From NCBI GenBank assembly GCA_964551605.1, contig CAZKCV010000001.1, positions 136,898-200,897 on the forward strand: 64,000 nt of DNA, in the 5' to 3' direction. A program made the translations under genes and the position numbers. Source of the DNA: an uncultured Gammaproteobacteria bacterium (GTDB lineage Bacteria; Patescibacteriota; Microgenomatia; Daviesbacterales; UBA10151). Below, one piece after another: positions 20,702-61,243 of the stretch. The notes beneath the pieces are model-generated. The model searched no databases, was not told the origin of the DNA, and saw nothing but the letters and a program-made list of their open reading frames with translations. Numbering within the stretch: the stretch's first letter is position 1; the number at the start of each line of letters is the position of its first letter.

Positions 20702-22786
20702 CTACCGGATTGCAAGTATTGTTTCAGGAGCAACAACTTCTTTCTGATCTCCCTCAGGAACGACTGGCTTGGGTTTGGTCCAGCTGGCAAATTTACAGAC
20801 GGGCCAGTTTTTGCAGCCGTAGAAAGTTTTGCCCCTTTTAGTTCTTCTCACTACAATATCCCCGCCATCCTGGGGACATTTGGCGTTGACCTTTTCTTCC
20901 AAAGATTCCGTATGTTTACATTCCGGAAAACCGGAACAAGCCAGGAACTTCCCGAATCTTCCTACCCTAACAATTAATTCCTTACCGCAGTCGGGGCACT
21001 TTTTACCGGCAAATTGAACTTCCATTTTCACTTTCTGGGCTTCTTTCTTAGTCTGTTCTACCTTTTTCTCAAACGGTTGGTAAAAAGCCGCAATTGTGGG
21101 ACGCCACTGCCTTTCACCCCTGGCTATTTCATCTAATTCATCTTCTAAACTGGCCGTAAAAGTGTAATCTATAATATCAGAAAAATTTGCCATCAAAAAA
21201 TCAATTACCGTCATACCTAAAATAGTAGGTATAAATTTTCTATTTTCTTTTTCTACATAAAACCGCTCCTGAATGGTAGAAATTATCGGGGCATATGTTG
21301 AAGGCCGGCCTATACCCAGCTCTTCCAGCTTTTTAATTAAAGAGGCTTCATTATATCTAGGCGGAGGTTCGGTAAAATGCTGAGACGGTAAAAGCTGCAC
21401 CAAAGCAAGCAACTGACCCTCAGATAAAGTAGGCAAAACTTGCTTTTTTTCCTCCCCTTCTTCCTCCGCCTCTTTTCCGAAGAGCTTAAGCCAACCATCA
21501 AATCGAATCACGCTGCCGGTTGCCCGAAGTAAATATCCGTCATTGCGAGGAGTCTGCGACGAAGCAATCTCTTGATTTTCCGAGGAAGATTGCTTCGCTT
21601 CGCTCGCAATGACGTCGATGGTTGTTTGGTCCATAACCGCCTCATTCATCTGGCACGCCACAAACCTTTTCCAAATCAGATCATATAACCGTACATGGTC
21701 TTTATTGAAATTTCCCTTCCCCCTTAACCCTTCACCCTTTTCCCTTATGTCTGTTACCCGAATCGCCTCATGCGCTTCCTGGGCATTTTTTGATTTAGAC
21801 TTAAAAACCCTGGCAACAGAAGGCAAATAAGTTTTACCGATAAAATTCTCTATGTATGTTCTGACAGCCCCGATTGCCTGAGTTGATAAATTAACGGAAT
21901 CTGTTCTCATATAAGTGATCAGTCCGTGTTCATACAAGGCCTGGGCAAGCATCATGGTCTTTTTGGCTGACATTCCCAATTTATTAGCCCCGGCTTGCTG
22001 CAGGGTTGAAGTTGTAAAAGGCGGGTATGGGTAGCGGCGGACTTCTTTTTGTGTAATTTTGGAGATGTTATACTGAGCCTTTTCCAGATTTTTGACATGC
22101 CCATCCGCTTCTTCCTTATTTTTGATTTCCAGCTTTTTGCCATCTTTTTCTATTAAATTGGCAATGAAACTGTTGCCTGTTGCCTGTTGCCTGTTGCCTT
22201 CCAGCTCTACCTCAATATTCCAATATTCCTCCGGCTTAAAGGCCTTTATCTCCCTTTCCCGTTCCACTATCAGCCTTAAAGCTACTGATTGAACCCGGCC
22301 GGCAGATAAGCCCTTTTTAACCTTTTCCCATAAAAGCGGTGAGAGTTTATAACCCACTAATCTATCTAAAACCCGTCTGGCCTGCTGGGCATCAACCAGT
22401 TTAAGATCAATAGGCCGGGGGTTTTCAAATGCCTCTTTAATGGCATCCTCAGTAATTTCATGAAAAACCACCCGCTTGGTATCTTTAGAATCATTTAATA
22501 CACCGGCTAAATGCCAGGCAATTGCCTCTCCTTCCCGATCAGGGTCTGTGGCTAGCCATAAAGACTCCGCTCTCTCAGCTACCTTCTTTAATTCATTAAC
22601 CCTTTTTTTCTTATCACGGGGAATAATGTATTTAGGATCAAAATTATGCTCAACATCTATTCCAAGCTCGGATTTCGGCAAATCCCGGATATGGCCCATT
22701 GAAGCCTCAATTTGATATTTATCACCCAGAAACTTTTGAAGTGTTTTCGCCTTAGTCGGTGATTCAACAATTACTAAATTCTGCAT
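20702..22786 (-). CDS. topA: DNA topoisomerase I with C-terminal zinc ribbons
   Basis: Toprim N-terminus and multiple C4 zinc ribbons. Carries in-frame repeat insertions. Confidence 0.9.
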   Translation of the reverse strand: MQNLVIVESPTKAKTLQKFLGDKYQIEASMGHIRDLPKSELGIDVEHNFDPKYIIPRDKKKRVNELKKVAERAESLWLATDPDREGEAIAWHLAGVLNDSKDTKRVVFHEITEDAIKEAFENPRPIDLKLVDAQQARRVLDRLVGYKLSPLLWEKVKKGLSAGRVQSVALRLIVEREREIKAFKPEEYWNIEVELEGNRQQATGNSFIANLIEKDGKKLEIKNKEEADGHVKNLEKAQYNISKITQKEVRRYPYPPFTTSTLQQAGANKLGMSAKKTMMLAQALYEHGLITYMRTDSVNLSTQAIGAVRTYIENFIGKTYLPSVARVFKSKSKNAQEAHEAIRVTDIREKGEGLRGKGNFNKDHVRLYDLIWKRFVACQMNEAVMDQTTIDVIASEAKQSSSENQEIASSQTPRNDGYLLRATGSVIRFDGWLKLFGKEAEEEGEEKKQVLPTLSEGQLLALVQLLPSQHFTEPPPRYNEASLIKKLEELGIGRPSTYAPIISTIQERFYVEKENRKFIPTILGMTVIDFLMANFSDIIDYTFTASLEDELDEIARGERQWRPTIAAFYQPFEKKVEQTKKEAQKVKMEVQFAGKKCPDCGKELIVRVGRFGKFLACSGFPECKHTESLEEKVNAKCPQDGGDIVVRRTKRGKTFYGCKNWPVCKFASWTKPKPVVPEGDQKEVVAPETILAIR
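21539..21613. repeat. Family A element in frame inside topA
   Basis: About 75 bp. Encodes VIASEAKQSSSENQEIASSQTPRND. Confidence 0.8.
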
Positions 22787-22832: not shown

Positions 22833-23090
22833 TCAAGTTTCAAAATCCTCATCCAGCACCTCCGGGTTAACTGAATCAAGTTCCTTTTGCAAATCAGTGT
22901 TACTGTCATATTTAATCTCTTTTGGTGGATTGAGCCTGGAAGATGGGAAAGGGGAAGTTTGTTGAAGAGAATCTTTTGAGGAAATAGGGCTTATTAAAGG
23001 CAAATGTTTCTGATTAGTGACAAAAAACACCACGATCGTTGTAAAAATTGTCAATACCAATATTATTAAAAAGGTCCTATTGTTTTTCAT
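22833..23090 (-). CDS. Small membrane-anchored hypothetical protein
   Basis: 85 aa, single N-terminal TM. Confidence 0.4.
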   Translation of the reverse strand: MKNNRTFLIILVLTIFTTIVVFFVTNQKHLPLISPISSKDSLQQTSPFPSSRLNPPKEIKYDSNTDLQKELDSVNPEVLDEDFET

Positions 23091-23091
23091 T

Positions 23092-23463
23092 TTATAGCGC
23101 CTTCCCCACTTCTCCTTTAGCTTTCAGGATTTTACCTCTTAGAACTCCTAAGCTACTTCGAAGTTGACTTTCTGATGAAAACTTTTGGGCTCGCTGAAAG
23201 GCCAAGGCTTCTGCCGCAAAAGTTACCTGGTAATCAGCGCTTTTTATCTTTGTGTCCACCCCGCCAAAAGCTACCCTGGTTTCCGTAATCCCTTCTCTCC
23301 TGCGAAGTTCTTCCATAATAGCTGCCAATTTTAAAACATCCCCCTCAAATCGATCACAAACTTTTTGATTGATTTGATCAAGGGAATTTGTTTGCGGAGT
23401 ACTTGCAAAAACAGTCACCGGCAGAAAAACTGCCAGTACCACAAACAGGAGAATCATCTTCAC
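23092..23463 (-). CDS. Secreted hypothetical protein (signal peptide)
   Basis: 123 aa. Signal peptide MKMILLFVVLAVFLPVTVFAS. Confidence 0.45.
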   Translation of the reverse strand: MKMILLFVVLAVFLPVTVFASTPQTNSLDQINQKVCDRFEGDVLKLAAIMEELRRREGITETRVAFGGVDTKIKSADYQVTFAAEALAFQRAQKFSSESQLRSSLGVLRGKILKAKGEVGKAL

Positions 23464-23535
23464 TTCTCTAGCATACCATTTTTCAACTTTCCTGTTCCTA
23501 ATCCGCCTTCTGCCTTTTCGCTCTTCCCTTTCCGT

Positions 23536-26043
23536 TTAGAGTAACTCTACCCCGGCCTTAAACAGATTCCCCTTTGTAAGCTGGTCCTGCAGAATTAACC
23601 TGGAAAGTTTGGCTTCCAGGGTATCCTGCAGCAAACGGCGCATGGGGCGCGCCCCCAGCACCGGATCAAAACCCTTTTTGGCAAATTCTGCCACCAGCTT
23701 TGGATCAAATTCCACCAAATACCCTTTTTCTTTCATCTGTTTTTGTAAACCCGCCAATTTAATGGTAACTATCTTTTGCAGGTCTTCCGAAGACAGCGGC
23801 TTAAACAATATGACATCATCAAACCTGTTGATTAGTTCCGGCTTGAAAATTTTCAGCAGCTCATCATTTACCTGTTTATCTATTGCTGCCAAATTCTTCC
23901 CGGATTCCAAGCCCTCAGCAATGCTCAAACTGGCAGCATTGGAAGTAGCTATTATAATGGTATTGGTAAAATCCACTGTCCGGCCGCTTGAATCCGTTAA
24001 CCTGCCGTCTTCCAACACCTGTAAAAATAAAGTTAAAATTTTCTGATCGGCTTTCTCAAACTCATCTAAGAGCAAAAGCGCGTAAGGACGTTGCCGGACA
24101 GCTTCTGTTAGCTGACCTTCCTGTCCCAACCCGCCGATCAACCGATTCACTGATTCACTGTTTTGGTATTCAGACATGTCAAACCTGATAAATGCCCCTG
24201 CTCCCTTAAAGTAGATATCCGACAGTATTTTAGCCAGTTCTGTTTTACCCACTCCGGTAGGACCAATAAACAAAAATGATCCGATCGGCCTGGCCTCTTC
24301 CCGAAGTCCGGTGGCACTGCGTCTGAGGGCATCTGCCACTGCCTTGACCGCCTGCTCCTGATCTATCAATCTCTGATGTATCTCTTTTTCTAAGTTTAGT
24401 AGTTTGCTTTTGTCGGTATTGCCGACCTCCATTAAAGGAACCTTGACCCGCTGAGAGATAATCCTTCTGATTACTTCTTTAGTTACCCAACCATTCACGG
24501 ATCCGGTATATGATTCATTTAAGATACTGATCGCAGAATCGGGTAAAACCCGATCATGGATCAGCTTTTGCGCTAAAGCAACTGTTGTCTTCAAAGCAAT
24601 AAAGGTAACTTTGACTTTTTCTTTTCTTTCTGACTCTATGGCTTTATCTTCCAGGATAGTAAGGGTATTTTCCGGGGTAGCCGGAGGGATCTCTACCTTA
24701 ATAAATAACCTGGCCAGCGCCCCGTTTTTTTCCAAGGTCCGGTTGTAATTTTCAATTTCGGTCGTGGCAATAAATTGGAATCTTTCAGATTCTAGATACG
24801 GCAACATCAAGGAATAGATATTCAAACTGCTTCCGGCTTCACCCTCTCCCAAGGTCTGAATTTCCTCAACCGCAATAATAACATTGCCCGTAGCCTCAAC
24901 CTCTTCAAAAACTGTCTTAATACGGTCTGCCAACTCCCCTTGTGTCCTTATGCCTGAGAGGAGTCTGGTAGGTTCTAAAATAACCAGCCTTTTGGTAGCT
25001 AAACTTTCCGGAGCATCGCCTGTGACGATTTGCTTTGCCAGAAATCGAAGCAGAGCTGTTTTACCGGAACCGGGCGGACCAACCAGGATGACATTTTTGT
25101 TTCCTGGTTGAGAAAGCACAGAGATAATCTGCTCTAACAAAGCAGTGCCACCAATAAAGTCAGAAAAACCTACCATAGCAGCAGTTTTTGTTAGATCTTC
25201 CGCTACAATATCTAAAGTTGGTGTAGGCACCCCCAGCCAGCCCCTGTTTACTCCTTTCAAGTGGCGGACTGAAAAGTCATCATCCCAGATATAAATTCTC
25301 CTCCAGATATTTCTTTTCTTTTCCAGATAAAACAATGCCTCCTTAAAATCATCCGTAGTTAATTCAAATTTGGCTAAATATTGATCTATATGAGGCACTG
25401 CCGGTAAGGCGGCAACAAAAAAATGGGCCGGGCTTAAATACTCACTCCCGCAAAACTTACCCAGCTCCCATGCCTCTTTAATTAATGCTTCTTTATCAGT
25501 AATTTCAAATACAGGAAAACCGCTTAGCTGAATCTCTAAATTGGCCAGTAGTGAAATTACTTCCCGGGATTCCAAGATTTTCATGAAGATTAATTCCTCC
25601 GGCTTGATTAACGAAGCATGCCATATAGCCGCCGGATTTTTACTGATTTGCCATAGTTTTTTATGGGGGTTAAAAAATATTTCCAAAAAGAATAAACCAA
25701 TGCCGCTAAATAATAATATTCTGCTAAAAAATTGTGGTAAATCCAAAAAAGCCAGAGCAGGTAGCGCAAACCAGAATAATGCCAATAAAAACAAGACTAA
25801 AGTTACCATCAAAAAGGCAAACAGTCCCATTACAATACGGCTTAAGCGGAAAATTAAACTTAAAGCCCTGCCGACAATTGTAGAATCATGAAAAAGCGGG
25901 GTAAAAAGCAACTTCCACATAAGTCCTACTGCTAAATCTTCCTCCAGCAGCAAAATCAAATTCTTCCAGGACCTGATAAAAAAACCTATTGCTTCCGGAT
26001 ACCAGAATTTTAATAAGCTAATTGGCAATGTTAGATACTTCAT
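23536..26043 (-). CDS. Membrane-anchored ClpC-like double AAA+ ATPase
   Basis: About 130-aa N-terminal multi-TM region, a Clp_N-like repeat, D1 (GPPGSGKT with Walker B VEEIQ) and canonical D2 (GPTGVGKT, LLLDEFEKA, ATSN, GARPMRR). Confidence 0.75.
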   Translation of the reverse strand: MKYLTLPISLLKFWYPEAIGFFIRSWKNLILLLEEDLAVGLMWKLLFTPLFHDSTIVGRALSLIFRLSRIVMGLFAFLMVTLVLFLLALFWFALPALAFLDLPQFFSRILLFSGIGLFFLEIFFNPHKKLWQISKNPAAIWHASLIKPEELIFMKILESREVISLLANLEIQLSGFPVFEITDKEALIKEAWELGKFCGSEYLSPAHFFVAALPAVPHIDQYLAKFELTTDDFKEALFYLEKKRNIWRRIYIWDDDFSVRHLKGVNRGWLGVPTPTLDIVAEDLTKTAAMVGFSDFIGGTALLEQIISVLSQPGNKNVILVGPPGSGKTALLRFLAKQIVTGDAPESLATKRLVILEPTRLLSGIRTQGELADRIKTVFEEVEATGNVIIAVEEIQTLGEGEAGSSLNIYSLMLPYLESERFQFIATTEIENYNRTLEKNGALARLFIKVEIPPATPENTLTILEDKAIESERKEKVKVTFIALKTTVALAQKLIHDRVLPDSAISILNESYTGSVNGWVTKEVIRRIISQRVKVPLMEVGNTDKSKLLNLEKEIHQRLIDQEQAVKAVADALRRSATGLREEARPIGSFLFIGPTGVGKTELAKILSDIYFKGAGAFIRFDMSEYQNSESVNRLIGGLGQEGQLTEAVRQRPYALLLLDEFEKADQKILTLFLQVLEDGRLTDSSGRTVDFTNTIIIATSNAASLSIAEGLESGKNLAAIDKQVNDELLKIFKPELINRFDDVILFKPLSSEDLQKIVTIKLAGLQKQMKEKGYLVEFDPKLVAEFAKKGFDPVLGARPMRRLLQDTLEAKLSRLILQDQLTKGNLFKAGVELL

Positions 26044-26408
26044 TTTGCTCTTATCAAATTTCCTTCAGGATCCAATTCAACAAAATGTTCGGCTCTTCCT
26101 TCCCGGTATGCAGGACACTGATTTTCCGGCAGGTCATCGGTGGGTAAACGAGGACTGTGGGCAATATCGGCCACCCACCCCGGCATTAAAGCATCCGAGA
26201 GACAGGGGCCAACTGAGAAATCTTCACCCCGATCTCTTCTCTGACGGTAAACATGTTGAGCCTGATTAACAGCCGTATCTATCTCGCCTTTAGGGGTGGT
26301 TTTCAGGGCAGTATTATTTAGAATTAGTGTGAAAACAGCAGTAATAATTATTACAGTTAAGGCAATAATAAGCAGGATTAATTTAGGCATAGTTATTACT
26401 AAGCTCAC
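26040..26408 (-). CDS. Small TM-anchored hypothetical protein (GC-rich)
   Basis: 122 aa with N-terminal TM. ATGA overlap with the Clp-like gene. Confidence 0.45.
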   Translation of the reverse strand: MSLVITMPKLILLIIALTVIIITAVFTLILNNTALKTTPKGEIDTAVNQAQHVYRQRRDRGEDFSVGPCLSDALMPGWVADIAHSPRLPTDDLPENQCPAYREGRAEHFVELDPEGNLIRAK

Positions 26409-27487
26409 TTCTTGCAGTATATCCCAGCTCCCAAGCTCTCCACAAGTCCTGAAATCTCCATTTTTAACAAGAGGGCGGAAATTTTTGGGGAAGGAAATTT
26501 GAGTTCCCTGCCAATCTCGTCAATATGCCGGTTTTCATTCTCTAATGCAGCTAAAACTTTTCTCTCCTCTTCCGAAAGATCTCTTTCGTTCTTGACTCTA
26601 GACTCCAGACTCTTGATTCTATTAATTCCCAGCTCCTCCAAAATTTCATCCGGGCTAAAGACGGCTCTGGCCCCTGCTTTAATTAAATCAATCGGGCCTT
26701 TTGATAAATGTGAAGTAATTGGACCGGGGACGGCAAACACTTCGCGCCCCTGCTCCAAGGCTAACCTAGCAGTAATAAGCGAGCCGGAATCCTCTGCTGC
26801 TTCGATTACTAACACGCCCTGCGATAAACCGGAAATAATCCTGTTCCTGGCCGGAAAGTTACCCGGCAAGGATGGGTAATCCGGTGGAAACTCGGAAATA
26901 ACTGCACCGAAACCCTCCGCAATTTTTGCGGCTAGATTGCGGTTTTCCGGAGGAAAAACATTATTTAAGCCTCCACCCAAAACGGCAATTGTCTGCCCTT
27001 GTTGAGCAACAGCTGTGGCGTGGGCTTTGGCATCTACCCCGCGGGCCAGTCCTGAAACTATAGTCAAACCCGCTTCTACCAACCCTCTGGTAAATTGCTC
27101 CGTGGCCACCCTGCCGTAACCGGTTATTTTCCTGGTTCCCACCACCCCGATCGCTTTTTTATCCCAATCCGGTTCGCCTCTATAAAAAATTACCACCGGT
27201 GGATCATAAATTTGGGCCAATAATTTTGGGTAACTCTTATCAAAAATGGTTACCCACTTGATTCCGCTATCAGCAATCTTCTCGGCATAACTTTCCGGCT
27301 CCAACTTCCTCCGTGTTTCCACCAGCAAATTGACTGTGTTCCTGAAAATCCCCAACTTCAGTAACTCCTCCCCATTAGCTTCCCAAGCCAACTTGGGGTC
27401 TTTGAAATATTCTAGAACTGCCCGGAGCCTAATCGGCCCTAAACCATTAATAGAGTGCAAAGCTAAAAGGTATGGAATATTATTCAT
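26405..27487 (-). CDS. dprA: DNA processing protein DprA/Smf
   Basis: GLARGVDAKAH..., GGGLNNVFPPEN and NFPARNRIISGLS Rossmann-like motifs. Confidence 0.85.
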   Translation of the reverse strand: MNNIPYLLALHSINGLGPIRLRAVLEYFKDPKLAWEANGEELLKLGIFRNTVNLLVETRRKLEPESYAEKIADSGIKWVTIFDKSYPKLLAQIYDPPVVIFYRGEPDWDKKAIGVVGTRKITGYGRVATEQFTRGLVEAGLTIVSGLARGVDAKAHATAVAQQGQTIAVLGGGLNNVFPPENRNLAAKIAEGFGAVISEFPPDYPSLPGNFPARNRIISGLSQGVLVIEAAEDSGSLITARLALEQGREVFAVPGPITSHLSKGPIDLIKAGARAVFSPDEILEELGINRIKSLESRVKNERDLSEEERKVLAALENENRHIDEIGRELKFPSPKISALLLKMEISGLVESLGAGIYCKK

Positions 27488-46333: not shown

Positions 46334-46408
46334 GCCGAAGTAGCTCAGCTGGCCTAGAGCGCCACTTTTGTAAAGTGGATGTCGTGGGTTCAAATCCCAC
46401 CTTCGGCT
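46334..46408 (+). tRNA. tRNA-Thr (anticodon UGU)
   Basis: Cloverleaf with 7-bp acceptor gccgaag/cttcggc, anticodon loop tTTGTaa, T-loop ttcaaat. The CCA end is not encoded. Confidence 0.7.
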
Positions 46409-46414
46409 CAGAAC

Positions 46415-46489
46415 GCCGACATAGCTTAGTGGTAAAGCACTTCATTGGTAATGAAGAGACCGTGGGTTCGATCCCCACTGTCGGCTCCA
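46415..46489 (+). tRNA. tRNA-Thr (anticodon GGU)
   Basis: Acceptor gccgaca/tgtcggc, anticodon loop ttGGTaa, T-arm gtggg-ttcgatc-cccac, encoded CCA. Confidence 0.7.
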
Positions 46490-48052: not shown

Positions 48053-48715
48053 ATGGCTTACAAAATGGAACTTAAGGGGAGGGCTATAAACTTAAGAGAA
48101 CAGGGTTATTCCATCAAAGAAATTGCAAAACTTCTCAGTATTGCAAAAAGCACTTCATCTGCATGGCTCAGTAATATTATGCTGTCCCCTAAGGCACAGG
48201 AAAGATTAAAGTCTCGTAGAATTTTAGGACAATACAAATCTATAGAAATCGCACGTAAAAAAAGGGTTGCGCAACAGCTAATATTAACAAATGAGGCTAA
48301 CCAACTTTTATCGAAAGTCTCAATCAATCCAGCAATATGTAAATTATGTTGCGCCCTACTCTTTTGGTGTGAAGGTGCTAAAACCAATACTCTAGTGAAA
48401 TTCACAAATTCAGACCCATCTCTAATAAAATTATTTCTTGATTTACTAAGAACAGGGTTTAAAATTGATGAATCAAAACTAAGAATCCTTATGCATTTAC
48501 ATGAATATCATGTGGAAGAGAAGCAAAAAATATTTTGGAGAGAGATCACTAAAATTCCCCTAGAACAATTCCACAGATCATATCTAAAACCTCACACAGG
48601 GAAACGGAAACATCCGAATTATCCTGGCTGCATTTCTGTAACATATTACAATGCTAAAGTTGCAAAAGAGTTAGCTACAATCTACAATACTTTTGTACAA
48701 AGGGGCGTCCGTTAA
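48053..48715 (+). CDS. HTH-domain protein, possible homing-endonuclease-like. Its 3' end overlaps tRNA-Trp.
   Basis: N-terminal HTH LREQGYSIKEIAKLL. C-terminal region is weakly LAGLIDADG-like (ALLFWCEGAK...LIKLFLDLL). The last 5 codons lie inside the tRNA acceptor stem. Confidence 0.4.
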   Translation: MAYKMELKGRAINLREQGYSIKEIAKLLSIAKSTSSAWLSNIMLSPKAQERLKSRRILGQYKSIEIARKKRVAQQLILTNEANQLLSKVSINPAICKLCCALLFWCEGAKTNTLVKFTNSDPSLIKLFLDLLRTGFKIDESKLRILMHLHEYHVEEKQKIFWREITKIPLEQFHRSYLKPHTGKRKHPNYPGCISVTYYNAKVAKELATIYNTFVQRGVR

Positions 48716-48772
48716 CTGGTAAACGGTTTCTCTCCAAAAGAAATCCTGCAGGTTCGAGTCCTGCCGCCCCTG
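48701..48772 (+). tRNA. tRNA-Trp (anticodon CCA)
   Basis: Acceptor aggggcg/cgcccct, anticodon stem tttct/agaaa with loop ctCCAaa, T-arm gcagg-ttcgagt-cctgc. Confidence 0.7.
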
Positions 48773-48785
48773 CATTATTATGAAT

Positions 48786-54567: not shown

Positions 54568-55815
54568 TCAATCGCTATATTTAACTCCGAACTTATTGGA
54601 AAACCTGTTGGCAGATCCAAGAACCGTATTTACTTGGGTAGCATCACCATTCCATTTAGCCAAGGATTTCCTCCTAAAATCAACTGTTACCGGTTCCTTT
54701 CCCACTGTGTATCCTATCCGCCAATCCCCGTTGCCTAAATTTTCGCTTTGGGCTATATGCACTTCTGAACCGATGGCTCCCCAGGTCACATGAAACAAAA
54801 TAAAGTCCTCTTTGACGTCCTTTAATAAATTTATCATCTCCAACGCTTTCCCAGGCATAAATTGTGGTCCGATGGCTCCTCCACTGATTGTGCCAGGAAC
54901 ATCCCGAGGCCATGTGGAGCCCGGAATGTTAGCAGCCATATATTTTAACCCCCCTGTCATCTTCTCTTGTATTCGGCAAATTTCCTCAAGCTGTTCTTTG
55001 GCACCACTGAAAACATCGTAATTAATTTGAGATAAAGCCGGTAAAGTACCAATATTGGTAAATCCGACTGTCTCATACATCATAAGCTTTGCTAAACCAC
55101 CTACATTCATCATTAAATCTTCCGCTCTCGGATTGCCTCTTAACCTATCTGGTATATCCAACGGATTTTCAGGATCAAAGAGATCCGGCCTAAACTTTTC
55201 CCCAGATTTATCAAGCAGCTTTTGGATAATATCTCTGGCTCTTTTGTAGGCATCAAGAGAAATTCCCATTACCTCTGGGTAAATACCCTCCTCCTTACAC
55301 CAAGCCAGGAGCTCCTCGGGCACCTTAGCCAAACGTTTATCAACCCCTGATTGCCGAATTTCATAACGCTTATTTAGCAGGTCAATCCTCAAATCAGGAT
55401 CAACTACTACCCACAAACCCCGGTCTACTTGTTCCAAAGTCTTAGCTCTTTCGGAATAAACCTGCTCAGTCTTTTCCCTTTCCGGTGTGCCTAGCGGTAA
55501 ACTAAGAGTCTTATTAAGAAAGTCTGTATCGGAAAGAGTCTCCAGGCCGGTTGGTTTTTCCTGTGTTTGAACTTGTTTTGGAGACGTTATGGCAGTAGGT
55601 TTTTGGGCTTCAGGAACTCTAGGATTCTTTCCCTCCTTAGAGCCAGCTTGTATAGCGGTTGTTAAAACAAGTCCCGCACCAGCCATCCCGAGTAACCCCA
55701 CAAGTCCCCTTCGGCTTATTCTGCCCCGTTCGTCAAATGATCTCTTCGGCAAAGCGGCTTTGGGAACAGACTGGGGGCGGTCCGGACTATCCTTCATAAG
55801 ACTACGATACCACAA
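54568..55815 (-). CDS. Secreted hypothetical protein with Tat-like signal
   Basis: SRRGLVGLLGMAGAGLV twin-arginine-like N-terminus. No catalytic motif recognised. Confidence 0.45.
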   Translation of the reverse strand: MWYRSLMKDSPDRPQSVPKAALPKRSFDERGRISRRGLVGLLGMAGAGLVLTTAIQAGSKEGKNPRVPEAQKPTAITSPKQVQTQEKPTGLETLSDTDFLNKTLSLPLGTPEREKTEQVYSERAKTLEQVDRGLWVVVDPDLRIDLLNKRYEIRQSGVDKRLAKVPEELLAWCKEEGIYPEVMGISLDAYKRARDIIQKLLDKSGEKFRPDLFDPENPLDIPDRLRGNPRAEDLMMNVGGLAKLMMYETVGFTNIGTLPALSQINYDVFSGAKEQLEEICRIQEKMTGGLKYMAANIPGSTWPRDVPGTISGGAIGPQFMPGKALEMINLLKDVKEDFILFHVTWGAIGSEVHIAQSENLGNGDWRIGYTVGKEPVTVDFRRKSLAKWNGDATQVNTVLGSANRFSNKFGVKYSD

Positions 55816-56017
55816 TCTTCCCTCTTGTGGATAATAAATAAATCTTTTACAATGCGGCTAGAATCTGTCTGCTGTCCTTTAAGCTAAAAAATTTATGCCC
55901 GGGGGACGAAAGAAAAAAACTACTGTTATACCACTGCTATCCCTTATTCTTTCTTTGGTTAAAATTATCCTGGTTAAAATAGGTAACGTGCCGCTTCGTG
56001 TGCTTCAATTTATAATT

Positions 56018-56105
56018 TACAATGTACAATGTACAATTCAGATCCTTCCAAAAATTCTACATTCTACATTCTACATTCTACATTTTGTGCGGCACAGCCG
56101 CACAA
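56018..56105 (+). promoter_or_regulatory. Heptamer tandem repeats (tacaatg)x2-3 and (ctacatt)x4 plus a 9-bp-stem hairpin overlapping the PBP1A GTG start
   Basis: ttataatttacaatgtacaatgtacaat ... ctacatt x4 (56058-56085), then ttgtgcggc-aca-gccgcacaa (56085-56105). Confidence 0.5.
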
Positions 56106-58159
56106 GAGGCCGGCCCAAAAAATTCCGCTTATCTTCCCGGGTTAAAATTGCCCTGGCAGGAGGCCTTTTTGCCGCTTTTGTTTTCTCCTATACCTTTTTT
56201 ATCCTGGCAGCTGCCTATCAGTTGCCCACTCCGACCAAGCTGACAGCTCCCAATAAATCCCTTACCACCGAAGTCTATGACCGAAACGGCATCCTGTTGT
56301 ACCGGTTTTACGAGGGCAGCAACCGCACCCTGGTTAACTTAAGTGATATTCCGGACAACATGATTCGGGCCACTATTGCCATTGAAGACCAGAATTTCTA
56401 CCACCATATCGGCATTGACATCCCGGCCATCATCCGGGCCGTTTATAGAAACGCCACCACCGGCAGCAGGGAAGGAGCTTCTACTATCACTCAGCAGCTA
56501 ATTAAAAACTCACTGCTGACCCCGGAGCGGACTTATGTCCGGAAAATCCGGGAAATGACCCTGGCGCTTTGGACAGAACGGATTTATTCCAAAGAAGAAA
56601 TCCTGCAGATGTATTTTAATGAAACCTCCTACGGCGGGGTTAATGTCGGCATCGGGGCCGCCGCCCGCACTTATTTCGGCAAAATCCCCAAGGAGCTAAC
56701 CCTGGCGGAGAGTGCTTACCTGGCCGGGCTGCCGGCTTCCCCCACCCAGTTTTCCCCTTACGGCTCGCGGTCAGACCTGGCTAAAATGCGGCAAAAACAG
56801 GTCCTGGACCGGATGGTGGAGGAAAAATATATTACCAAAGCTAAAGCTGATGAAGCCTTTACCCAAAAATTAAACATTAAACCGCTGGCAAGTAACATCC
56901 TGGCCCCCCATTTTGTCTTTTATGTCAGGGATTTACTGATAGAGCGGTTTGGCGCCCGGCTGGTTTCACAGGGAGGCTTAAAGATTTATACCAGCTTAGA
57001 TTTGGGACTGCAGGAAAAAGTAGAGGAAATTGTCAGAAAAGAGGTTGACCAGTTAAAAGGCTTAAATGTCACCAATGGCGCGGCCATGGTGATGGACAGC
57101 CAAACCGGGCAGATCCTGGCTATGGTGGGCTCCCGGGATTACCACTATCCCGGCTACGGCAATTACAATGCCACCTTAGCGCTTCGCCAGCCCGGCTCTT
57201 CCATCAAACCGGTCACTTATGCAGTGGCCCTGTCCAAAGGCTACAACCCCGGCAGCATTTTATTGGATACGCCGGTAGTATTTAAGGATGAGTGGGGCAA
57301 TGCCTATGCGCCGGTTAACTATGACGGCCGCTACCGGGGACCGGTCACCTTAAGGCAAGCTTTGGGCAGCTCACTTAATACCCCGGCAGTCAAAGTCCTG
57401 GCCGCAGTCGGCATTGATGAGTTTGCCAAAACTGCCCGGGATTTAGGTCTTACCACGATTGATAACCCGGAACGTTTCGGCCTGGCTTTGACATTAGGCG
57501 CAGCTGAAGTCAAGATGATTGAGATGATGGGCATGTACGGAACCTTTGCCGCAAACGGCCGCTACCGCGAACCAACCGGCATCCTGAAAGTAACCAACTC
57601 AGATGGCCAAACCCTGGAAGAATACCGGGACCACCCGCGCCAGGCCATTGACCCGGAAATTGCCTATACCATTACCAACATTCTGGCTGATGATGAGGCC
57701 AGGAAATTGGCTTTTGGCCCTAAATCCCTGCTGTATATTCCGGGTTATGAGGTACCGGTTAAAACCGGCACTTCGGATTGGAAAAGGGATAATGTCACTT
57801 ACGGCTATACCCCCAAATATGTAGTCGGAGCCTGGGTGGGCAATCCGGATAATCAACCGGCCAACCAGGCACTGACCTCCGGTATCACCGGGGCGGCCCC
57901 GATCTGGAATAAAATCATGCATGAGCTTTTAGACGGAACAACACCCCTAGCTTTTCAGAAGCCGGACGGAGTGGCTGATATTACAGTCTCCGGAAAAAAG
58001 GACCTGGAACTTAAGAAGAAAGTCCCTAAAGAAATGGTCCGGATTAAAAAGGATAAAGACCAGGTTATTTTCCAGGATAAATACTCCACCTATGCCACTT
58101 CCGCCGCCCAACCGGATCAGCAGGCTAATCAGGCTATTCCAGAACAACCCAACCTCTGA
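56087..58159 (+). CDS. Penicillin-binding protein 1A (GT51 transglycosylase plus transpeptidase), GC-rich
   Basis: Transglycosylase motif RATIAIEDQNFYHHIGID and transpeptidase motifs SSIKP, SLN, KTGT. Start placed at the in-frame GTG 56087 before the canonical basic-TM N-terminus. Confidence 0.8.
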   Translation: MRHSRTRGRPKKFRLSSRVKIALAGGLFAAFVFSYTFFILAAAYQLPTPTKLTAPNKSLTTEVYDRNGILLYRFYEGSNRTLVNLSDIPDNMIRATIAIEDQNFYHHIGIDIPAIIRAVYRNATTGSREGASTITQQLIKNSLLTPERTYVRKIREMTLALWTERIYSKEEILQMYFNETSYGGVNVGIGAAARTYFGKIPKELTLAESAYLAGLPASPTQFSPYGSRSDLAKMRQKQVLDRMVEEKYITKAKADEAFTQKLNIKPLASNILAPHFVFYVRDLLIERFGARLVSQGGLKIYTSLDLGLQEKVEEIVRKEVDQLKGLNVTNGAAMVMDSQTGQILAMVGSRDYHYPGYGNYNATLALRQPGSSIKPVTYAVALSKGYNPGSILLDTPVVFKDEWGNAYAPVNYDGRYRGPVTLRQALGSSLNTPAVKVLAAVGIDEFAKTARDLGLTTIDNPERFGLALTLGAAEVKMIEMMGMYGTFAANGRYREPTGILKVTNSDGQTLEEYRDHPRQAIDPEIAYTITNILADDEARKLAFGPKSLLYIPGYEVPVKTGTSDWKRDNVTYGYTPKYVVGAWVGNPDNQPANQALTSGITGAAPIWNKIMHELLDGTTPLAFQKPDGVADITVSGKKDLELKKKVPKEMVRIKKDKDQVIFQDKYSTYATSAAQPDQQANQAIPEQPNL

Positions 58160-58165
58160 GGTCTT

Positions 58166-61100
58166 TTAAGATGGAATAACCAATACGGCATTGTTCATGG
58201 GAGTATAACGCTCAAAATAAGAAATATCGCCCCCCAGACTGTCGCTGTATTCGTAAGGGTTAAAGCTTTGGGGTATAAAAATCTGGACATCTTTTGTCTC
58301 ATAGCGGAATCCGTTTTTCTTGGCTTCAGTTGACAAAAACGGGATGGTATGCGAATGATCCGAACCGCTTCCCACCATTTGTTCACCGCTGACCACCAAG
58401 ACCGCTCCGGTTGCCCGGGCTTTAGCCAAGGCCATCCGAACCACTAAATTATATACCTGCGATATTTCAGACGTGGTGTAAATAGGTTCCAATAAAATAG
58501 CCGGTTTTTGGCCGCCTTCTACTTGAAGGTTAGTCAATTTAATCACGGAGCGTGCCAAAATTTCTTTATTGTTACCTTCTACATTAATAACCCGCTTATT
58601 GGCATCGGCAACGTAAGCAGGCAAACAGTAATTATGGCTTCCTGCCCTCCAGCTTTGGCAGGTTTCTCTAGGTTCAACACCGACGTTTAAAAGAACAAAA
58701 GGGTCATCGCTGTCATAAGCTTTCAACTCCTCAACTCTAGCCAATTCTTTTTGGGTCGTTAGAACCTGTGATATCTGATCCAAATCTTGTTGGGCCTGCT
58801 CAAGGTTGCCCAAGGAATTTAAGGCATTTTTTGTTCTGCTGATAATTTCTAAAATTTTAACCGGTTGCAACTGGTCCGGAGAAAGAGATTCCAACCCGAT
58901 CATCCCCTCTAAAACTTGTAGCTCCAAATCAACTGAGTGCTTCTTCATACCCAGCTCTTTTTTTGCTTCTATATCCACTGGTCCATCCTTAAGGTCTTTG
59001 ATTAATTGACTGCGCGTCAGTTGCAATACCCTTATCCTGTCTTCGGAAAAATCCAGCCTGTAAACTTCTGCAATATGGGCTTTAGATTCCTGGACAATTC
59101 TTTTAATAGCCTCAACCGCGCCTTTTCTTGCTTCTTCTTGCTTTTGCATTTTTATTGTTACCCGCAACTCTTCAACAGGTTCTAACCACGCCTGCCTTTT
59201 GTCCTCTGGAAGAGCAGCAAGTTGGGCTACTGACGTTGGCAGGTTATTTCTCCACTCTTTAAAATCACCCAAAATAATGTGCCTGCCAATCTCCCGGGCC
59301 GCATGTTTGGTATTATCCTCTCTTTTTTCGTATTGAGCTAAAAGAGCCGGAATTATTTCAAAAGTCTTATTTTCCAAAAGATAAGGAAGCCGTTCCCGCA
59401 AGGATGGTAACTCTTCCTCGGAAATTTCCATTTTTTCTTTGGCTGCCTGAACAGCCTTTTCTTTAAGATCGGCAATAATTTCATTCAAGCTTCCCCTTAC
59501 TTCAAAACCAAAAACGCCGAAAGCATCCAAAGAACGCATCCATTGGAAGATTTCCTTGATTCGCGCGGGATCTTCTCTGGTCCCGCGGGCCACATTTAGG
59601 ATGGACCCCAAAATTCCCCCGCCGTTTTCCTTGGTAGTGAGGAATAAAAGTCCTTCTGCAAAGCTGGCGCGGGCAAAAAAACCTTTTTGCAAGTCTTTTG
59701 ATTGATAAATTAAGGCAAGTTTTTCTAAAGATTCAGGCTTTAAAGATAATCCTTCGCGGGCAATCAAACTGGGAAAGGAAAAATAGTTTTGATCTTTCGG
59801 GCTAACTAAGGCATTAAAAAGAAGCGGGTTAGTCATCCTCCAGTCAACCAATTTACTCTTGGCCATTGTTGTTACGACTTCGGGAAGGTTTTGAAGAAGC
59901 AGTTGGTCGATTTGTTCTGTTTGGCTCCACTCACCAAAGTTTCCTAAAAAATAAGCCTGTAAAGTTCTTTCGTCAAGTTTTACTCCTGAAGTCTCGGCTA
60001 TTCTAGCAGCCAGTTTTACAAGTTCCCCGTAAGCCAGATGGCTTTCAGCGCTTTGAATACAGAGTGCCATAGTATAGCCATCGTTACCTTGAAGGGCTTG
60101 CTTTATTACCGGAGCCGAATTTATAAACCATTCATTAACAACACGCCTCTCCAAAAGAGGCAAGCCTGCTAGAACTTCACTTAGTTCTTCTTTAGAAAGA
60201 GGTTCCTTGACAATAGCAGAAATAGTTTTTACCACTACCGCACTGGTATGGCCTGACCCAAACATCCTTAGGTGTTTAATTAAACCAGGAATGGCCCGGG
60301 GGTCTTTCAGTGAATAAAAAACACTGGCAACTCCTGAACCATCCCAGCTTTCACGGCCGCCCTCATATAGCTGCTCAAAAAACCTTTTTTCAACTACATC
60401 ATAAAGCGTGTGCGTCTGGTCCAGGGTCGCATCAATCCTATCCCACTCTTCCCATTGTTCAGAATTAAAACTCCGCCGTACACTCTCAATTGCCCCATTA
60501 AGATAATAATCGTCAGAAGCAGTATCAACAATCTTTGGAAAATTCGGCAGATAGACTCCATCCCTGGATAAACTATAGGAATCATGATAAAAAGGATTAA
60601 CCAATGCTTGGTATTGGTTTCGCAAAGCAGGATCTGCGGTTACTACTGCCAATTCTCTTAAACTTTTAAGAAGATCGTTCGGCTTACCGGAAACTTCAGG
60701 ATCAGTTTCTTTGTATTTGATCGGTAAATTTGTTCTGGCCAGTGCGTCTTCTTCAAAAAGCCTCGCCCCTTCTCTTGCTATCCAGTATTCCAGGATGTTT
60801 TGGGAAAGCCTGGAAGTCTTTTGTGTTAACTTCAACAATCCAGCGCTTTTTTCTTTGTCTTGAGGAGAGATGATTTGGTTTAAGAAAAGTTCAAGAAGAT
60901 ATAGGTCTTTAAAGTCTTTTTCCGCGCTTGCCAGTTGCTCCTCTATTTCATCGGACGTAAAATTGGCATCTAATGCATTTTTCTTTTCTTCAAACATACC
61001 GCCCAAAAGTGCAGTCAGCTTCTCTTCATTCACCCGATATCCTAAGCCTGCAGGAGAAACCATATCCTGGGGAACAAGATTATGTCTTCGGAAGACTTCG

Positions 61101-61243
61101 TTCATTTCATCACGGTTGACTAATTGCGGGTGTGACTCAATATTTCTGTATCCAGCAATTATCCCGTTCAATCTTGCCAGATTGTTGGTCAGTGGAGGTT
61201 GTTCTTGCTCGTGATTAGCACCATCAAAACCTGCTTCAGCCAT
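58166..61243 (-). CDS. Large hypothetical cytoplasmic protein (1025 aa)
   Basis: Long uninterrupted ORF, predominantly helical, no TM and no recognisable catalytic motif. Confidence 0.5.
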   Translation of the reverse strand: MAEAGFDGANHEQEQPPLTNNLARLNGIIAGYRNIESHPQLVNRDEMNEVFRRHNLVPQDMVSPAGLGYRVNEEKLTALLGGMFEEKKNALDANFTSDEIEEQLASAEKDFKDLYLLELFLNQIISPQDKEKSAGLLKLTQKTSRLSQNILEYWIAREGARLFEEDALARTNLPIKYKETDPEVSGKPNDLLKSLRELAVVTADPALRNQYQALVNPFYHDSYSLSRDGVYLPNFPKIVDTASDDYYLNGAIESVRRSFNSEQWEEWDRIDATLDQTHTLYDVVEKRFFEQLYEGGRESWDGSGVASVFYSLKDPRAIPGLIKHLRMFGSGHTSAVVVKTISAIVKEPLSKEELSEVLAGLPLLERRVVNEWFINSAPVIKQALQGNDGYTMALCIQSAESHLAYGELVKLAARIAETSGVKLDERTLQAYFLGNFGEWSQTEQIDQLLLQNLPEVVTTMAKSKLVDWRMTNPLLFNALVSPKDQNYFSFPSLIAREGLSLKPESLEKLALIYQSKDLQKGFFARASFAEGLLFLTTKENGGGILGSILNVARGTREDPARIKEIFQWMRSLDAFGVFGFEVRGSLNEIIADLKEKAVQAAKEKMEISEEELPSLRERLPYLLENKTFEIIPALLAQYEKREDNTKHAAREIGRHIILGDFKEWRNNLPTSVAQLAALPEDKRQAWLEPVEELRVTIKMQKQEEARKGAVEAIKRIVQESKAHIAEVYRLDFSEDRIRVLQLTRSQLIKDLKDGPVDIEAKKELGMKKHSVDLELQVLEGMIGLESLSPDQLQPVKILEIISRTKNALNSLGNLEQAQQDLDQISQVLTTQKELARVEELKAYDSDDPFVLLNVGVEPRETCQSWRAGSHNYCLPAYVADANKRVINVEGNNKEILARSVIKLTNLQVEGGQKPAILLEPIYTTSEISQVYNLVVRMALAKARATGAVLVVSGEQMVGSGSDHSHTIPFLSTEAKKNGFRYETKDVQIFIPQSFNPYEYSDSLGGDISYFERYTPMNNAVLVIPS

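Follow-up and report, generated by a model that had tools for sequence, protein, structure and literature searches.

What does a Clp-type ATPase do when it is anchored in a membrane? The question is raised by a 64,000-nucleotide (nt) stretch of contig CAZKCV010000001.1 from a Candidatus Daviesbacteria genome (GenBank assembly GCA_964551605.1, positions 136,898 to 200,897), called the window below. Four genes lie there between dprA and topA, and the largest encodes a protein of 835 amino acids (aa) with tandem AAA+ modules and a hydrophobic N-terminus. An initial annotation had described it as an integral-membrane Hsp100/Clp-like ATPase with a non-canonical first (D1) and a canonical second (D2) AAA+ module; domain searches, motifs and hydropathy agree with that description. 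The protein is one of a large family of double AAA+ ATPases of Hsp100/Clp type that are anchored in the membrane and vertically inherited in Patescibacteria. Its sequence indicates that it is probably not an ordinary unfoldase. We put the odds at about even (roughly 0.5) that it is a membrane-tethered, D2-driven remodelling ATPase or switch rather than a processive threading unfoldase.

Pore loops and catalytic sites of a divergent Hsp100 ATPase

Pfam places AAA at residues 318–437 (9e-17), AAA_lid_9, AAA_2 at 585–743 (1.4e-50) and ClpB_D2-small at 750–826 (6.4e-22). The tandem AAA+ modules and the sensor-2 GAR motif assign the protein to class I Hsp100/Clp, and ClpB and ClpC entries in the PDB are matched at E ~1e-115; the closest solved relatives are Thermus thermophilus ClpB (1qvr, 5.8e-117) and Bacillus subtilis ClpC. 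An AlphaFold2 (AF2) model (pLDDT 74.7) superposes on subunits of the ClpC, ClpC1 and ClpB hexamers. A database protein (P0001), encoded on a 223-kb contig, is 100% identical and more than 100 further full-length homologues exist; the close ones are named Candidatus Daviesbacteria, Microgenomates or Patescibacteria.

D1 has a canonical Walker A motif, EE at Walker B (aa 393–394) and ARLF in the Arg-finger region (aa 444–447). D2 has the complete canonical catalytic set (K600, D660/E661, N702 and R740). The motifs quoted in the initial annotation (IIAVEE at the D1 Walker B, ARLF, GPTGVGKT, LLLDEFEKA, ATSN, NRFD and GARPMRR) are all present and are conserved in 51 homologues.

The pore loops depart from the Hsp100 pattern in both rings. 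Where ClpB has AGAKYRGE in D1, the alignment gives SGIRTQGE, a K/R-T-Q-G loop (aa 366–369) with no tyrosine. The D2 pore-1 loop is 6 aa shorter: ClpB GAPPGYVGYEEGG becomes GGLGQEG (aa 637–643, nt 24115–24135 of the window), which removes GYVG. Both changes are fixed in 51 Daviesbacteria-type homologues. The conserved KYR tyrosine of D1 and GYVG tyrosine of D2 make contact with the substrate, and their replacement by Ala eliminates or hinders degradation by ClpAP; in ClpA and ClpX, pore-loop tyrosines are critical for substrate grip and translocation (PMC8666677).

Alignment columns were counted in 58 full-length representatives at ≤50% identity. The D2 Walker A Lys, Walker B DE, sensor-1 Asn, Arg finger and sensor-2 Arg are each present in 58/58. 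D1 keeps its Walker A Lys in 57/58. Its Walker B is DE in 31/58 (the others have DD, PD, PE, EE, ND, DA, HS and more), and Arg is found at position 445 in 26/58; within the Daviesbacteria subclade EE is nearly fixed (50/51). D1 is thus eroding across the family, and D2 is catalytically complete. The pore-1 tyrosines are missing in at least 56 of the representatives: none has Tyr at the D1 position, and at most two have it at the canonical place in D2. The D2 loop varies from 4 to 16 residues, is wholly deleted in 7/58, and is rich in Gly, Ser and acidic residues, not basic ones.

The initial annotation saw neither a ClpP-docking loop nor a ClpB-type M-domain, and both absences hold up in the alignments. 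D1, which extends to about residue 511, abuts D2 (from 506–519), so that ClpB residues 389–504 (116 residues) are unmatched; about 80 ClpC residues (384–462), the ClpC M-domain region, also have no counterpart. D2 aligns with ClpB D2 gap-free apart from the pore loop. Between SN (701–702) and NRFD (739–742) lie 36 aa, the ClpB length, with no [IV]G[FL] motif (IGF, IGL or VGF). Pfam Clp_N and UVR have no match in the protein; the N-terminal domain of the AF2 model matches Clp N-domains in structure.

The NCBIfam equivalogs for ClpB, ClpA, ClpV, ClpK and ClpG all match, at about one-third to one-half of their cut-offs. Assignment to ClpB was rejected on the missing M-domain and a TIGR03346 score of 488.5 bits (cut-off 1232.1), and to ClpA on the missing IGL loop, the lack of a Pfam Clp_N match and a TIGR02639 score of 439 bits (cut-off 993). 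ClpC was rejected for want of Clp_N and UVR matches, a VGF loop and a match to the M-domain region. ClpV (TssH of the type VI secretion system) scores 356 against a TIGR03345 cut-off of 885, and no genes of that system are among the neighbours. FtsH is unsuitable for lack of a Peptidase_M41 match and for its one ring instead of two Hsp100-type rings. Similarity to the anti-phage defence ATPase DolB (Dodola) is partial and confined to D2 (127 bits, residues 521–705), with no partner gene and a housekeeping context. Database records label family members ‘ATP-dependent Clp protease ATP-binding subunit’ or ‘AAA family ATPase’; the ClpP-coupling part of the label is not supported by the sequence. 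The initial annotation considered the protein uncharacterised, rightly so: no curated family model reaches its cut-off, and searches of the full-text literature turned up no account of an Hsp100 in bacteria of the candidate phyla radiation that is membrane-anchored or pore-loop-less.

The membrane module and the extent of the family

The initial annotation gave the protein several transmembrane (TM) helices at its N-terminus. A membrane hairpin is real, but only two segments are strongly hydrophobic (about 73–100 and 106–124; Kyte–Doolittle maxima 2.87 and 1.85), and what precedes them is a highly conserved amphipathic helix-loop (residues 6–59). AF2 helices span 6–41, 56–100 and 106–124. The outer loop of the hairpin is about 5 aa (DLPQF), and basic residues flank both cytoplasmic ends (R59, R66 and R69 before; H127, K128 and K129 after). 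From the positive-inside rule we read this as an N-in/C-in hairpin, which would place the AAA+ rings in the cytoplasm.

Within the N-terminus, conservation is highest over the first 60 residues, where P7, F13, W14, E34-E35-D36-L37, P49-L50-F51-H52-D53 and G58 are invariant in 51 sequences. P49, D53, G58 and R66 are conserved in the 58 distant representatives, and hydrophobic N-terminal segments occur in all 58 and in all full-length metagenomic members. This N-module has no Pfam family, whether the isolated N-terminus or eight small N-module proteins were searched, and no PDB sequence match; its profile matched only the D1 leader in the PDB. When the N-terminus alone was used in a word-indexed homologue search, the matches were all fragments.

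In two diverged lineages (15 contigs, up to 76 kb) the module is encoded by a separate gene. A 118–125-aa N-module gene lies directly upstream of, or overlaps, an 825–832-aa Clp-like gene that opens with its own TM helix, as at loci L083 (6001–6357 and 6338–8815) and L086 (3641–4018 and 4020–6518). The small proteins match the N-module only. They comprise the N-module and the first TM helix, and the break falls at the extracytoplasmic turn of the hairpin. The split was revealed by the better-supported clusters P0263 and P0266; two ‘stand-alone’ N-module proteins (P0222 and P0232), from low-coverage contigs under 1 kb, were discarded as evidence. Since the 118–125-aa genes adjoin Clp-like genes, the N-module is a unit in its own right, invariably found together with the ATPase.

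Searched against 1.84 billion representatives, a profile covering the N-terminal 330 positions retrieved 492 proteins at E<1e-3 (about 490 clusters at 50% identity), many of them full-length (830–900 aa). Named members come from Daviesbacteria, Microgenomates, candidate division WWE3 and the ‘Patescibacteria group’. The family is recognized by the N-module motif LFxP[LM][FY]xDxxxxG-R..R with TM helix(es), the linker and the invariant D2 set, together with the lack of an M-domain, a ClpP loop and pore-1 Tyr; the window protein has every one of these features. The linker, GG[VI]NRxW..R.TPxLD..S.DLT, precedes D1, and as a search pattern it retrieved 31 further loci.

A 921-aa relative (P0261; locus L051, 323–6815) has a Cys4 zinc-ribbon-like N-terminal motif in place of the N-module, HS at the D1 Walker B and a Pfam Clp_N match. 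Its gene sits in a dcw-type cluster (mraZ-rsmH-127 aa-Clp-117 aa-ftsW), in the usual place of ftsL/ftsI. Many public records of metagenome-assembled genomes with the Daviesbacteria-type locus (L004, L009, L011 and others; binchicken co-assemblies) are titled ‘uncultured Gammaproteobacteria bacterium’. These titles are misleading: gene content and synteny are those of Patescibacteria.

Gene neighbourhoods

ORF calls and Pfam matches in the flanking genes place four co-directional minus-strand genes between dprA and topA, as the initial annotation had them (Table 1). They encode the ATPase and three small proteins, TM122, SP123 and TM85. The minus-strand array reads mreC, mreD-like, PBP2 (a penicillin-binding protein, PBP), dprA, TM122, Clp-like, SP123, TM85, topA and pyrG. 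Four-nt overlaps join dprA to TM122 (GTGA) and TM122 to the ATPase gene (ATGA). SP123 and TM85 are 1 nt apart, and spacers of 72 nt and 46 nt separate the ATPase from SP123 and TM85 from topA. A promoter and terminator scan of the array found no intergenic terminator-like sites and no convincing promoters; terminator-like sites are rarer in the array than in shuffled sequence.

Table 1. Features of the window, with positions in window coordinates and residues of the 835-aa protein
Feature	Position	Strand	Basis
dprA, upstream flank	26405–27487	minus	Pfam DNA_processg_A 1.9e-77, DprA_WH
TM122	26040–26408	minus	ORF and hydropathy; overlaps with dprA and the ATPase gene
Clp-like ATPase, 835 aa, whole gene	23536–26043	minus	ORF, Pfam domains and homologues
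aa 1–72, N-module: conserved amphipathic helix, loop motif LFxPLFxDxxxxGR, Arg-rich juxtamembrane helix	25828–26043	minus	residue conservation
aa 73–124, two-helix membrane hairpin	25672–25827	minus	hydropathy, AF2 helices
aa 137–246, divergent Clp_N-like helical domain	25306–25635	minus	
aa 253–288, linker W-x10-GGVNRGW-x-x-PTPxLDxxxxDLT leading into D1	25180–25287	minus	conserved in 58 representatives
aa 300–515, D1 AAA+ module and lid	24499–25146	minus	T. thermophilus ClpB alignment, column counts
aa 545–745, D2 AAA+ module	23809–24411	minus	ClpB alignments; catalytic residues 58/58
aa 750–826, D2-small, sensor-2 GARPMRR	23566–23796	minus	Pfam 6.4e-22; R799 58/58
SP123	23092–23463	minus	ORF and hydropathy
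TM85	22833–23090	minus	ORF and hydropathy
topA, downstream flank	20702–22786	minus	Pfam Toprim, Topoisom_bac 7e-130, Zn_ribbon_Top1
Class A PBP gene	55895–58159		Transgly and Transpeptidase

TM122 is small and spans the membrane once, with two Cys and an external domain of about 85 aa; its translation is coupled to that of dprA and of the ATPase. Its true start is probably the ATG at 26390, because homologues align only from residue 9. SP123 is a small helical protein with a signal-peptide-like N-terminus, and TM85 is small, N-terminally anchored and weakly conserved (34–75% identity). Scans of Pfam, NCBIfam and PADLOC gave no significant match for any of the three. For TM122, archaeal Pilin_N was rejected on a sub-threshold match (E 0.01) and the lack of a class III signal motif. 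For SP123, a weak PADLOC match to the RecX family (19.9 bits, E 2e-4, residues 44–121), seen in spite of the signal-peptide-like N-terminus, was judged probably spurious; the gene with this ‘RecX family protein’ match does lie in the dprA–topA interval.

The order PBP2-dprA-TM122-Clp-[0–2 kb variable genes]-SP123-TM85-topA-pyrG recurs almost universally across 39 species-level genomes of the Daviesbacteria type. Between the ATPase and SP123 lies an insertion hot spot, occupied by 0 to about 2 kb of variable genes (L001, 8571–10467; L003, L008, L014, L015 and others); in one genome these are a PhdYeFM antitoxin gene and a 407-aa ORF that matches no Pfam family. A genome scan found TM122 in 32 of the 39 loci and at no other locus, with no tblastn match in the remaining seven. 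SP123 and TM85 are likewise confined to Daviesbacteria: no homologue of the three small proteins was found near the ATPase at any non-Daviesbacteria family locus examined. The initial annotation had treated the four genes as an operon of an ATPase and its partners. Given their restriction to Daviesbacteria, the seven loci with no TM122 match and the insertions that often part SP123 from the ATPase, the small proteins are Daviesbacteria-specific neighbours in a long housekeeping array, not conserved partners of the ATPase.

For other lineages, ORFs were called and clustered in 28 non-redundant loci and the clusters checked with Pfam. The gene for release factor 2, prfB, directly follows the ATPase gene on the same strand in 17/28; in nine loci, prfB is followed by a gene for a small TM protein (about 150 aa) that matches no Pfam family. 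Also downstream of the ATPase are ftsE and ftsX (12/28 each) and a coiled-coil M23 peptidase (7/28), and secA lies two to five genes upstream in 8/28. The Clp-prfB adjacency occurs in at least six sublineages whose ATPases are 35–49% identical to one another. This context (L049, L053–L082; e.g. L057, 7236–9809 and downstream) is found in WWE3 and several other deep lineages. Further distant members lie beside folC, beside RNase HII/PBP1, or in the dcw cluster (mraZ-rsmH-x-Clp-x-ftsW). dprA is never among the recurrent neighbours in the 28 loci. The ATPase is therefore a vertically inherited housekeeping gene with no conserved partner, and its position between dprA and topA is a lineage-specific arrangement. 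The ATPase might be functionally linked to the cell-wall or division genes beside it (PBP2/MreCD, PBP1, FtsEX-M23, dcw), but we treat this as no more than a weak lead: such core genes are common in genomes of ~1 Mb, and the secA-prfB-ftsEX array is old and conserved in its own right.

Elsewhere in the window, where GC content is about 42%, positions 56001–58000 reach 50.8% GC and overlap the 3′ part of the class A PBP gene. Two minus-strand ORFs, of 1025 aa (58166–61243) and 415 aa (54568–55815), have no Pfam family at E<=1e-5. Two adjoining tRNA-Thr genes (46334–46489; TGT and GGT anticodons, 5 nt between) and a tRNA-Trp gene (48701–48773) are the sole RNA genes found. There is no secA, prfB or ftsEX within the window.

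Mechanism and comparison with known systems

If the protein is a remodelling ATPase or switch, it would form a ring on the cytoplasmic face of the membrane, in the order membrane, N-domain, D1, D2. D1 would bind nucleotide and serve mainly in assembly or regulation, leaving D2 as the sole motor. ATP hydrolysis would then drive a conformational change in a membrane-proximal client or in the protein’s own membrane module, in place of processive translocation, ClpP degradation or DnaK-coupled disaggregation. We favour remodelling over threading because the canonical threading loops are dispensable in the family. Several points weigh against this. EE is strictly conserved in D1 of the Daviesbacteria subclade, where D1 may therefore have retained ATP hydrolysis. 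Some substrates could be gripped even by pore loops without aromatic residues, and two of the 58 members may keep the D2 loop tyrosine. The hexameric state and the topology are predictions only. A substrate-entry face turned toward the membrane would also be the geometry of an extraction machine.

Such a machine is the alternative that we take most seriously, although we think it unlikely: an FtsH/Msp1-like unfoldase on a Clp scaffold that extracts or quality-controls membrane proteins by threading, with the small neighbouring proteins. The N-terminal TM anchor would hold the entry side of the ring (N-domain and D1) against the membrane, D2 is an intact motor, the Clp_N-like domain could bind clients, secA is nearby in 8/28 loci, and TM122 is translationally coupled to the ATPase in Daviesbacteria. 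Extraction, which the initial annotation had suggested, is weakened as a threading mechanism by the family-wide absence of the KYR/GYVG tyrosines, which are critical for grip (PMC8666677), and by a D2 loop that is hypervariable or deleted. In addition, with no protease domain and no ClpP loop there is no built-in fate for extracted proteins, and the small proteins are missing outside Daviesbacteria. A more speculative proposal, and a rather improbable one, is a new mechanistic class of AAA+ protein that has abandoned threading. D2 would be mechanically coupled to a TM ring of 12 helices by way of D1, the N-domain and the conserved juxtamembrane module. The whole would act as a membrane gate, conduit or mechanotransmitter, driven by ATP, that the ultra-small Patescibacteria could not do without in their envelope biology. 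An envelope or division role would fit the recurrent position by secA…prfB-ftsEX-M23.

Erosion of the D1 motifs and loss of the pore loops might instead mark a non-enzymatic scaffold or pseudo-ATPase, a Clp-derived membrane organiser that would bind nucleotide without performing mechanical work, comparable to the degenerate plant Clp proteins of the SMAX1/D53 type. We hold this to be quite improbable: the D2 catalytic residues are invariant in 58/58 members at ≤50% identity, which implies strong selection for ATP hydrolysis. Very little speaks for a DNA-uptake or trans-envelope machine tied to dprA, the other idea of the initial annotation. The 4-nt overlaps from dprA through TM122 to the ATPase, and the adjacency of dprA in nearly all Daviesbacteria loci, are what suggest it; that adjacency is limited to one lineage, and distant members sit in the unrelated contexts described above. 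Moreover, the hairpin exposes an external loop of just about 5 residues, and Gly/Ser/acidic D2 loops are ill suited to binding nucleic acid. Hardly credible at all is an annotation or assembly artefact, in which a soluble ClpC or ClpB has acquired a misassembled N-terminus. The same N-terminus, invariant from P7 onward, occurs in 51 homologues, in 39 independently assembled species-level genomes and in more than 100 protein clusters; the scores fall far under the ClpB, ClpA and ClpV equivalog cut-offs, and the M-domain and pore tyrosines are absent.

In the textbook view, Hsp100/Clp proteins are soluble machines that thread their substrates and are defined by the tyrosines of their pore loops. 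This large, conserved bacterial family contrasts with them: the D2 ATPase site is perfectly preserved, but the ring is fused to the membrane, D1 is decaying and the threading loops have been given up. Should this be confirmed, the family would widen the known range of the Hsp100 scaffold and provide a bacterial counterpart to the pore-loop-less, poorly understood Torsins. In at least two major lineages of Patescibacteria, Microgenomates/Daviesbacteria and WWE3, the gene seems to belong to the core set; the proteomes of these lineages are very small and for the most part still uncharacterised. With its clear motif signature and its gene-fission forms, the family is easy to delimit and lends itself to expression and testing.

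Among known systems, ClpB/Hsp104 is the best match in sequence and structure and shares the N-D1-D2 order, D2-small and a D2 with no ClpP loop. The window protein differs in having no M-domain, hence no known route of DnaK coupling, no KYR/GYVG tyrosines, a non-canonical D1 Walker B and Arg finger, and an N-terminal membrane module. It resembles ClpA in lacking a middle domain and in its single-stretch TIGR02639 match (residues 277–827), and ClpC hexamer subunits are its top Foldseek matches; unlike either, it is membrane-anchored and has no IGL/VGF loop, no ClpC M-domain or UVR and no pore tyrosines. Plasmodium HSP101 of PTEX, to which homology is shown only at the level of the generic Hsp100 fold, is soluble, docks on a separate EXP2 pore and keeps its pore tyrosines. 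FtsH and Msp1/ATAD1 share an N-terminal TM anchor and a presumed hexameric AAA+ ring on the cytoplasmic face, an architectural analogy only. Those are single-ring classical-clade AAA proteins with aromatic pore loops, FtsH with an M41 protease, whereas the window protein has two Hsp100-type rings, no protease and no aromatic pore loops. Torsins are relatives of Clp D2 that associate with membranes, have no aromatic pore-loop residues and are thought not to thread. They are single-ring proteins of the eukaryotic endoplasmic reticulum lumen with no Arg finger of their own; the family described here is bacterial and double-ringed, and its D2 Arg finger is invariant.

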